Source: Fidelibacterota bacterium (GTDB lineage Bacteria > Fidelibacterota > Marinisomatia > Marinisomatales > S15-B10). From it: a stretch of DNA of 16,106 bases. The notes below the pieces were generated by a model. That model did not search any database. It was not told the origin of the DNA and worked only from the letters and a program-made list of their open reading frames with translations. The translations under genes and the position numbers were made by a program. Location of the stretch: NCBI GenBank assembly GCA_046861655.1, contig JBHIAI010000032.1:1-16106 (forward strand). The letters run 5' to 3'. Shown here one piece after another: positions 4,953 through 13,100 of this stretch (its first letter is position 1; each line of letters opens with the position of its first letter).

Positions 4953-5351
4953 CTACCACAGGCGGCAGAGGACCTCTCCCCCCACATTCAACTTTCTCGC
5001 TACTTTGTCCGAGACCACCCCTTTGGAAGTCGTCAGGATAGCCACCCCAAGACCACCGAGCACACGGGGAATGCTGTCAGCGGTGGCATAGACCCGCCGG
5101 CCGGGCTTGCTTACCCGCTCAATATGCTTGATGACAGGTTCGCCATCCCTGTCCCGCCTCAGGAATACCCGGACCATCTTCTTAACCGGCTCATCGATGA
5201 TGAGGAAATCCTGGATAAAATGTTCCTCCTTCAGAACGTACAGAATGCGAAGTTTCAAGTTGGAGGCCGGTACGTCGGTCCACCTGGACCCGGCCTTCTG
5301 GGCGTTACGTATGCGGGTCAAAAGATCTGCTACCGGATCCGTCATGGTCAT
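4953..5351 (-). CDS. rpsH: 30S ribosomal protein S8
   Basis: MTDPVADLLTRIRNA, RVSKPGRRVY, GLGVAILTTSKGV, GGEVLC. Confidence 0.98.
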   Translation of the reverse strand: MTMTDPVADLLTRIRNAQKAGSRWTDVPASNLKLRILYVLKEEHFIQDFLIIDEPVKKMVRVFLRRDRDGEPVIKHIERVSKPGRRVYATADSIPRVLGGLGVAILTTSKGVVSDKVARKLNVGGEVLCRLW

Positions 5352-5353
5352 GA

Positions 5354-5428
5354 CTAGGAGTGCAGGATTCGAACAGAATCCGATTTAGAAGCCAAACGAT
5401 GAGAAGATTTCAAGGCGCGACGACGCAT
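5354..5428 (-). other. Putative 24-aa small ORF within the element (MRRRALKSSHRLASKSDSVRILHS*)
   Basis: ATG at 5428 preceded by CAGGA-TTTAGAC; TAG ends 2 nt before the rpsH ATG; translation not demonstrated. Confidence 0.3.
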
Positions 5429-5448
5429 GTCTAAATCCTGCACTCCTA
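5355..5448. mobile_element. MITE-like element: 90-bp core (5357-5446) flanked by TA, with terminal inverted repeats
   Basis: Perfect 15-bp IR TAGGAGTGCAGGATT (5355-5369) / AATCCTGCACTCCTA (5434-5448) including the TA. Removing it gives TAGGAGGGTTAGTCATG (SD AGGAGG + 7 nt + rpsH ATG). Same terminus at 7-18 and 9986-10001. No transposase in the window. Confidence 0.7.
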
Positions 5449-5454
5449 ACCCTC

Positions 5455-9983: not shown

Positions 9984-9985
9984 CT

Positions 9986-10001
9986 TAGGAGTGCACTCCT
10001 A
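9986..10001. repeat. 16-bp perfect palindrome TAGGAGTGCACTCCTA, the fused termini of the MITE-like element, at the rplW/rplB junction
   Basis: Each half matches an end of 5355-5448; removal gives GGAGGCATAAGATG (SD GGAGG + 6 nt + ATG). Confidence 0.7.
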
Positions 10002-10322
10002 TGCCTCCGGCTCCATCTCAAACAGATCGATGGTGAAGCCCTCCCTCAGGGTGGCCACCGCTTTCTTCCAATCGGACCGTTTCCCCGAGGTACGAATCAC
10101 CCGCCCCCCGCTACGGATCGTTAGCTCCTTTTTCTTCCCCTTTACACGGATGGTACTTACCCTGGCCACCTGTACGTTGAATTTCTGTTCAATCGCCCTC
10201 TTGATCTCAATCTTGTTGGCCCTGGGATCCACCTGAAAGGCGTATTTTCTTTCTTTTTCCTCCAACCTCGACATTTTCTCGGTCAGAAGCGGACGCATCA
10301 GAATTCTTGAACCGGGATCCAT
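9999..10322 (-). CDS. rplW: 50S ribosomal protein L23
   Basis: RPLLTEK, YAFQVDPRANKIEIKRAIE, WKKAVATL; ATG 10322 preferred, TTG 10328 possible. Confidence 0.96.
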   Translation of the reverse strand: MDPGSRILMRPLLTEKMSRLEEKERKYAFQVDPRANKIEIKRAIEQKFNVQVARVSTIRVKGKKKELTIRSGGRVIRTSGKRSDWKKAVATLREGFTIDLFEMEPEA

Positions 10323-10324
10323 TT

Positions 10325-10954
10325 TCAATTCACCGCCAACTGTTCGCTCAGGAGTTTGATCCCTTCCCGGTCAAACAGAAGAATCTGACAATCGAGAAGG
10401 TCCCTCGCGGATGCCTGGGCGGCGGGCATGAGAGTGACCTTGGGAACATTCCTTGCGGAAAGGACCACGTTTCGGTCCAGCGTCCCTGGCAAGAAGGTTA
10501 TCTTTTTCCCCTCAAGATTCAGGTTCTTCAGAATCTGCACGAAGGCCCGAGTCCCCGGCTCATCCATGGTAATGGAGTCCACCACTACGATTTCCTTGTC
10601 CCTTGCCCGCTGGGAAAGAACGCTTCGCCGGGCCAGTTGCTTCATCTTCTTTGGCAAGCGGTTCCTGTAGGTGGCCGGCCTGGGACCGAATGTGACGCCC
10701 CCCCCTCTCCACAAGGGGGACCGAATGGATCCCACTCTGGCCCGGCCCGTCCCCTTCTGCCGCCAGGGCTTTCGACCGCCTCCCCTCGTTTCAGCCCGGG
10801 TCTTTGTAGAACGGGTGCCCTGACGGGAAGCAGCCATTTCAGCCACCACAGCCCGGTACACCACATCCTGGTTAGGCTCAATCTTGAACACGGTGTCGTC
10901 CACCCTCACCCGGGAAGAACTCTTTCCTTCTGTGTCCCGAACGGTCAACTGCAT
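10325..10954 (-). CDS. rplD: 50S ribosomal protein L4
   Basis: RQGT..TKTRAE, GGGRKPWRQKGTGRARVGSIRSPLWRGGG; start reassigned to ATG 10954 (MQLTV), downstream of the rplC stop. Confidence 0.96.
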   Translation of the reverse strand: MQLTVRDTEGKSSSRVRVDDTVFKIEPNQDVVYRAVVAEMAASRQGTRSTKTRAETRGGGRKPWRQKGTGRARVGSIRSPLWRGGGVTFGPRPATYRNRLPKKMKQLARRSVLSQRARDKEIVVVDSITMDEPGTRAFVQILKNLNLEGKKITFLPGTLDRNVVLSARNVPKVTLMPAAQASARDLLDCQILLFDREGIKLLSEQLAVN

Positions 10955-10968
10955 CACCCCGGCTCCCG

Positions 10969-11592
10969 TCACTTCATTACCGAAACCAGGCTGTTCCGGG
11001 CTCCTGGCACGGACCCTTTCACGAACAGGCATTGATGCTCCATGTCCACCTTCACCACCTCCAGGTTTCTTACCTCAACCTTCCGGTTTCCGTGCTGGCC
11101 GGACATCTTGACTCCCGGCCATACCCTTGAGGGATCGGAAGATTGCCCGATGGAGCCCGGAGCCCGGAGACGGTTCGATTGACCGTGAGTCTTGGGCCCG
11201 CCCCTGAAACCGTGTCGTTTCACCACACCGGCGAACCCCTTTCCCTAGGATACTCCCCGTACGGTAACCCGGTCTCCTTCCTTGAAGACGTCAACGGAAA
11301 TTTTCGCTCCCACCTCTGGGGTCTCATCTCCACCCTGGGGAAACTCCATCAGGTACCGCTTGGGCGAGACACCGGCCCGTTTGAAGTGTCCCCGGAGAGG
11401 TCGATCGGCGCGGGATTCCTTCAGTTCGCCGAATCCCAACTGAACGGCGTCGTATCCGTCCACCTCTCGGGTTCTTACCTGGGTGACCACGCAGGGACCC
11501 GCCTGAATGACCGTCACCGGAATACTCTCACCGTCAGAGCCAAACAGTCTTGTCATTCCCACCTTTTTTCCCATGAGCGCCGTCATCATCAC
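10969..11592 (-). CDS. rplC: 50S ribosomal protein L3, interrupted by an in-frame TAG at 11245-11247 (formally a pseudogene as sequenced)
   Basis: The two track ORFs (11245-11592 and 10969-11226) share a frame. Joined: [57 protein letters not shown]; 207 codons. Confidence 0.95.
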
Positions 11593-11897
11593 GCCTTGAT
11601 TTCTATGTCCACCCCGGCGGACAGATCCAGCTTCATAAGGGCATCGACGGTCTTGGGAGAAGCGTTCAGGATTTCGATGAGCCGCTTGTGGATCTTGGTC
11701 TGAAACTGTTCCCGGGATTTCTTGTCCACGTGAGGAGACCGCAGGACCGTGTACACGGTCCGCTTGGTGGGCAGGGGGATAGGACCGGAAATGGCGGCCC
11801 CGGTGGACTTGACCGTCTTCACAATCTTTTCCGTGGATTTGTCCACAAGGTTGTGGTCATACCCTTTCAGCGTAATCCTGAGTGCTTGCCCGGCCAA
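11589..11897 (-). CDS. rpsJ: 30S ribosomal protein S10
   Basis: [30 protein letters not shown] start. Confidence 0.98.
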
Positions 11898-11909
11898 GGG
11901 TAACCCCGC

Positions 11910-13100
11910 TTACTCCACGACCTCAGTGACCACGCCTGCGCCCACGGTATGGCCCCCTTCCCGGACGGCGTACCTCAGCTCCTTCTCCATGGCGATCGCT
12001 GAGATCAACTCCACCGTCAGTTCCACGTTATCCCCGGGCATCACCATCTCCGTCCCCTCAGGCAGGGTCACCACACCCGTCACATCCGTGGTCCGAAAAT
12101 AAAACTGGGGACGGTATCCATTGAAAAAGGGCGTGTGACGACCCCCCTCCTCCTTCTTCAGAACGTACACGTTCGTCTTAAACTTCGTGTGAGGCGTTAT
12201 ACTCCCTACCTTCGCCACCACCATCCCCCTCTTCAACGTCTCCTTCTCTATCCCACGCAACAACAACCCCGCATTGTCCCCCGCCTGGCCCTGGTCCAAC
12301 TCCTTGCGAAACATCTCCACCCCCGTCACCACCGTCTTGCGGGAAGGCCCTAACCCTACAAGCTCTACCTCATCCCCTACCTTCACAACACCACGCTCTA
12401 TCCGGCCTGTCCCCACCGTCCCCCGGCCCGTAATACTGAATACATCCTCCACAGGCATCAAAAACGGCTTGTCTATGTCCCGAACCGGCTCCGGAATGTA
12501 CTCATCGATCGTCTTGATCAACTCGTCCACACTCGACATGGCCTCATCATCCTCAGGATGATTCAACGCCGCCAGTGCACTCCCCTTGATGATCGGTATC
12601 TCATCCCCAGGAAACTCATACTCCGTCAACAACTCCCGTAACTCCAACTCCACCAACTCAATCAACTCAGGATCATCCACCATGTCCGTCTTGTTTAAAT
12701 ACACCACGATCGCCGGCACATTCACCTGCCGAGCCAACAATACATGCTCCCGCGTCTGGGGCATGGGTCCGTCCGCCGCCGATACCACCAGAATCGCACC
12801 ATCCATCTGAGCCGCCCCCGTGATCATGTTCTTGATGTAATCCGCATGACCCGGACAATCAATGTGAGCATAATGACGATTCTCACTCTCATACTCCACA
12901 TGAGCCGTCTGAATCGTAATCCCCCGCTCACGCTCCTCAGGAGCATTATCTATGGAATCAAACGTCCGAACCTCCGACAATCCCCGCTGAGATAAACGCA
13001 TCGTCATCGCCGCCGTCAACGTCGTCTTTCCATGATCTACATGACCAATCGTACCCACGTTTACATGAGGCTTCGTCCGCTCAAACTTTGCCTTTGCCAT
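11910..13100 (-). CDS. tuf: Elongation factor Tu
   Basis: [54 protein letters not shown] upstream. Confidence 0.99.

Follow-up and report, generated by a model that had tools for sequence, protein, structure and literature searches.

An amber codon within rplC of a Fidelibacterota draft genome is very probably an error of the assembled sequence

Ribosomal protein uL3 is essential, and an amber codon in the middle of its gene raises the question of whether the organism itself carries and tolerates the stop or whether the stop belongs to the assembled text alone. We addressed this question in a window of 16,106 nucleotides that makes up all of contig C43 in a metagenome-derived Fidelibacterota draft genome (G000; 2.06 Mb in 198 contigs, completeness 92.8%, contamination 0.9%). 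The window holds no tRNA and a minus-strand run of genes that we take, from protein likeness and order, to be rpsL-rpsG-fusA-tuf-S10-spc. Thirty genes were delimited in it, and the 29 other than rplC are without an internal stop.

A lone stop at an invariant lysine

Translation of the minus strand confirmed, as text of the assembly, the in-frame TAG that a first-pass annotation had reported in rplC (Table 1): the gene reads as a continuous L3 frame with one internal stop only. Its neighbours are presumably rpsJ and rplD, named from protein likeness and S10-operon order, and the TGA of rpsJ overlaps the rplC start. From ATG 11589, where the full-length database protein P0001 begins, rplC has 206 codons. 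The bacterial L3 profile (TIGR03625, L3_bact) matches the upstream half at residues 6–115 (profile positions 2–111) and the downstream half at residues 1–89 (positions 113–201), so the stop takes exactly one column and there is no indel, as the annotation had also held. Read through the TAG, the protein scores 272.6 bits (cut-off 142.9) over positions 2–201 of 202. With this full-length match above the curated cut-off and a position in the S10 operon between rpsJ and rplD, the gene is, as judged from its sequence, a member of bacterial uL3. Its nearest named homologues are L3 proteins labelled Fidelibacterota or Marinimicrobia, at 78% identity and lower, a likeness that puts the organism in this group.

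Table 1. Features of the rplC locus and in-gene stops retained in the genome-wide screen
Feature	Location	Strand	Remarks
rplC (ribosomal protein uL3)	10969..11592	-	single frame, 207 codons from GTG 11592
Internal TAG of rplC	C43:11245..11247	-	codon 116 counted from GTG 11592; TAG facing K
rpsJ (uS10), upstream of rplC	11589..11897	-	intact
rplD (uL4), downstream of rplC	10325..10957	-	intact
AAGGGG ... GTG 11226, re-initiation site suggested by the first-pass annotation	11224..11241	-	ordinary rplC coding
Stop in atpG (ATP synthase gamma), codon 6	G000:C128:4828	-	TAG facing Lys in the same-genus genome
Stop in batD	C114:3072	+	TAG facing Gln
Stop in yfhO-like membrane protein gene	C21:2976	-	TAG; G, K, E in 3 relatives
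Stop in topA, ~24 codons before the end	C6:5524	+	TGA; relatives G, K, K, K

The residue displaced by the TAG had been described as a conserved Lys, and the alignment to relatives proposed as a check bore this out: the column is K in the rplC loci of 19 of 19 relatives (AAA in 14, AAG in 5) and in all 120 of the listed L3 homologues, among which the flanking G, G, F and G are likewise invariant (120/120). A same-genus genome, whose rplC is 77% identical to that of the window over its full length, has AAG at this column. TIGR03625 matched in 11 of 14 family relatives, and the match contains a stop in none of these 11 and only in the window's genome. The 206-aa database protein P0001 is identical to the window L3 except for K at the site, and its alignment to solved uL3 chains (9i5t_E, 7jil_C) is end to end and has K in this column. 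The rplC of one relative (G010) appeared to be in three pieces; its breaks are runs of N.

Other parts of the window also drew attention. Between the genes for S14 and S8, at 5350–5452, lies an intergenic element of ~100 nt that has long terminal inverted repeats and folds at -41 kcal/mol; related pieces, at 79–96% identity, occur on 14 other contigs. A short palindrome of the same arm sequence lies at ~9984–9998, between rplW and rplB, and the two have the look of a small mobile repeat and of a scar left by it. At 1543–749, map directly follows secY with no adk between them; in the expected gene order adk separates the two.

The codon in same-species metagenome contigs

Seven public runs are listed, all of DNA and all as contigs. 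Three of the seven, from one vent-metagenome study, cover most of the window, and the draft genome may have been assembled from one of these. We compared runs X1–X4 with the window over 10300–12300, listing differences from 1 in 100; X4 does not reach 11247. At plus-strand position 11247, where the window has A, all three covering runs have T, at depths of 5.66 (X1), 6.57 (X2) and 5.18 (X3), the full depth of the covering contig in each case. With T at this position the codon is AAG, for Lys. The annotation had named T at 11247 as the result that would make the stop an artefact, and this is what the runs gave, at the level of contigs; its preferred reading, a base-call or assembly error or else a minority allele, is favoured accordingly by three runs of three. 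A contig of 1424 nt from X2 bridges the position with more than 255 bases on each side and 2 differences from the window, whereas the T sits 15 (X1) and 23 (X3) bases from a contig end, X2 being the only run to bridge the site by at least 31 bases on both sides. P0001 derives from a contig of equal length (1424 nt) and is probably the same datum as this X2 contig, and so not a fourth witness.

When the comparison was extended to the full 16 kb, at least one of the three runs departed from the window at 18 sites. Only at 11247 do all three runs disagree with it, and no other site is nonsense; the remaining 17 comprise 10 synonymous and 5 missense sites, 1 intergenic site and 1 that falls in a start codon placed by hand. 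Between X1 and the window there are only 2 differences in 16 kb (1678 and 11247), so X1 comes from the same or almost the same strain. Further strain alleles occur in X2 and X3, which nevertheless have AAG in rplC. The contigs of X1 break at the site, one ending at ~11248 and the next starting at 11233. A separate feature of X2 is a 118-nt loose end at window position 402, between rpmJ and rpsM, that begins with hairpin-like sequence and suggests an insertion in one strain only; a 10-base piece of this end has matches in the genome, but all in contexts that look unrelated.

We conclude that the TAG is true of the assembly text and almost surely wrong for the organism. Very probably one base in the consensus of this thinly covered metagenome assembly is wrong, with A in place of T at 11247, in which case the organism likely makes an ordinary full-length uL3. 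Coverage may have dipped at 11247, where the draft genome may then owe its continuity to a single read in which one base was miscalled, a course of events that would fit the break of the X1 contigs exactly at the site.

The rare alternative nearest to this explanation is that the TAG is real, a fresh and probably lethal nonsense mutation in one or a few cells or damage to library DNA, and was picked by the assembler; the population overall would then still make full-length uL3. We think this unlikely. The population is polymorphic, with 17 other variable sites in 16 kb, and the X1 contigs do break at 11247, but those other variants are silent or mild, and with uL3 essential and rplC in a single copy, such an allele could not rise in frequency. 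No contig bearing A at 11247 was found in X1, X2 or X3, with differences listed from 1 in 100; this comparison rests on one contig per run, of word depth 5–7 and from one study, and contigs drop rare variants, so that a minority A allele is possible. Contigs cannot separate a miscalled read from a very rare real allele.

In-gene stops and amber decoding across the genome

As reference for a genome-wide screen we aligned to the draft genome 1557 greedy ORFs from 1.96 Mb of a family member (G002, ~2.1 Mb), which limits the screen to genes present in G002. Matches were kept for 846 ORFs, with 283,955 codons aligned; 557 matches reach the query end, and 503 have a stop at the expected place. Inside the alignments lay 26 stops, of which 5 were kept (Table 1) and 21 dropped. 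Eight of those dropped were judged to lie in opposite-strand shadow frames (four on C46, two each on C102 and C3) and 12, by eye, at a gene end, past it, or ahead of the likely start; the last, a TAG at C113:11575 that faces W in 3 of 4 relatives, is in a frame with a second stop and was judged to lie upstream of the likely start. The same comparison gave ten frameshift candidates against G002 orthologues (on C186, C127, C8, C44, C151, C14, C144, C34 and C88).

Each of the five retained stops is one step from a sense codon. Relatives are open at the stop positions of batD, the yfhO-like gene and topA; the batD stop faces CAG in 3 of 4 relatives and Q in 18 of the 19 homologues parsed (of 26). 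At atpG codon 6 the same-genus genome and 4 of the 5 closest homologues have K, with T or D further out. The TAG there is probably an error of the same kind as that in rplC. When same-species copies of the batD and atpG proteins were sought, nothing came up except truncated calls from the assembly itself (P0147 and P0241). Five stops in 846 genes imply ~1.7e-4 substitutions per base, or ~2.8 per 16-kb window, in line with the 1–2 private bases seen here. Nonsense changes make up 3.4% of random substitutions under the codon use of this genome; a nonsense outcome of an error is thus a priori uncommon, but this window was flagged for exactly that.

Could a strain or subpopulation instead read TAG as an amino acid, by a suppressor tRNA or as pyrrolysine, and so tolerate it at a Lys of rplC and of atpG? 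Four of the five in-gene stops are TAG, and two of them, in rplC and at codon 6 of atpG, stand where the closest relatives have Lys. TAG would, however, account for 48% of random nonsense changes, so that four in five is no outlier (P = 0.16), and with 18% of new TAGs arising from Lys, the probability that at least one of the three TAGs beyond rplC faces Lys is ~0.44 (calculated by hand), which makes the second Lys-facing TAG unremarkable. Of the other two, that in batD faces Gln, encoded by CAG in the same-genus genome, and the second faces a variable G/K/E site. In all, 9 TAGs occur in the 283,955 aligned codons, of which 4 are in-gene (two opposite K, one opposite Q and one at the variable site), whereas TAG is a normal terminator, ending 188 of the 503 genes with a located end (TGA 221, TAA 94) and, as the first-pass annotation had counted, 12 genes of the window, among the 30 delimited. 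RF1 (prfA) is full length at 505 bits (cut-off 423), has no stops and retains its PTT and GGQ motifs. Genome-wide reassignment would leave TAG unused as a terminator and frequent opposite one residue, with RF1 lost or altered; here TAG is used and rare within genes, and RF1 is intact.

The decoding machinery gives a similar answer. ARAGORN at its default threshold found no tRNA with a CUA anticodon in G000; the tRNA set is also without Tyr, Asn and Ile, and in an assembly that is 92.8% complete a suppressor tRNA could be unassembled. Seven CUA hits from a relaxed ARAGORN search were set aside as noise, six lying in open frames of 117–726 codons and one overlapping a tRNA-Glu, and the Rfam tRNA model added only a tRNA-Asp to the ARAGORN set. 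Models for pylS, pylB and pylC (TIGR02367, TIGR03910 and TIGR03909) gave no match over their cut-offs in the 92.8% complete genome: there was no match at all for pylB, the best for pylS reached 31.7 of 178 bits, in a gene that scores far higher as HisRS, and the best for pylC 23 of 248 bits. In a control panel containing Methanosarcina, one genome exceeded each of the pylS and pylC cut-offs. The runs, moreover, read AAG in rplC. Read-through or pyrrolysine, which had been offered as an alternative, thus found no support, and we consider it very improbable that any strain reads this TAG as an amino acid. A sub-strain with real ambers at rplC codon 116 and atpG codon 6, an unassembled suppressor tRNA and RF1 retained would amount to early TAG recoding, a scenario to which we give very little credence. 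Amber read-through in an essential ribosomal protein with RF1 intact would be a surprise, and a narrow literature search, by title or start of abstract, found no precedent for it in rplC. The draft genome does have a tRNA-Sec with a TCA anticodon (G000:C126:6027-6120), so that the stop for which it has known recoding machinery is UGA rather than UAG.

Readings beyond error, a rare allele and amber read-through are, taken together, highly improbable. One would have uL3 made as two chains, with termination at the TAG and re-initiation at GTG 11226. The annotation was right that AAGGGG lies 9 nt upstream of this in-frame GTG; the purine run is, however, the K-G coding sequence of a conserved motif, and the proposed restart site codes for the conserved K-G-F-A-G-V stretch. 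Seven residues would be lost, including the K, G, G, F and G shared by all 120 listed homologues. The same-species runs have a continuous frame, no searched relative is split here and, given AAG in the runs, a restart is unneeded; the split gene is accordingly unsupported and we regard it as exceedingly improbable. Another would make rplC a true pseudogene complemented by a copy elsewhere, which could be missing from an assembly 92.8% complete. Searches of that assembly by tblastn, blastn and the TIGR03625 profile returned one rplC locus and no second intact copy, so that the annotation's alternative of a second copy found no support, and the locus has its normal operon position, no other lesion and full-length identity of 77% to the same-genus orthologue. 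With AAG in the runs as well, we find a complemented pseudogene scarcely credible.

A wrong base in the consensus, the reading we prefer, leaves the rplC TAG without importance as biology, the organism very likely having a normal uL3. Its consequences concern the draft genome, which probably holds false stops in core genes (rplC and probably atpG, batD, topA and the yfhO-like gene). Gene calls made from it yield truncated proteins, such as the 288-aa atpG entry P0241, and single in-frame stops in it should not be taken as recoding or gene loss.

Comparison with known systems

Set against bacterial uL3 (rplC; TIGR03625, PF00297), the window gene differs by one base in the assembly and by nothing else. 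It resembles pyrrolysine amber decoding (pylTSBCD) in having an in-frame TAG where a lysine-like residue would fit, and is unlike it in that pylS, pylB and pylC were not found in G000 and that the TAG is absent from the other sequence of the species. According to the part of the source used here, pyrrolysine in marine Deltaproteobacteria needs pylB/C/D, PylRS and tRNA-Pyl and sits in the active sites of methylamine methyltransferases (PMC8318568). Screens for codon reassignment likewise look for conserved residues aligned with apparent stops (Shulgina and Eddy 2021, PMC8629427). Reassignment, however, puts many stops opposite one residue, against 9 TAGs per 283,955 codons in G000, and the sections of that paper drawn on here name UGA alone as a reassigned bacterial stop, to Trp or Gly.

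The closest likeness is to spurious pseudogenes, for which low coverage, base miscalls and assembler choice create false internal stops, in the account that we take from part of Cooley and Wright 2024 (PMC11017572). That account concerns isolate genomes with raw reads reassembled, whereas we compared a metagenome-derived genome with contigs of runs. As in those cases, rplC has a lone internal stop, is otherwise intact and lacks the stop in near-identical sequence of the same species; as far as its marks could be tested, the rplC TAG thus behaves like the spurious internal stops of low-coverage assemblies.
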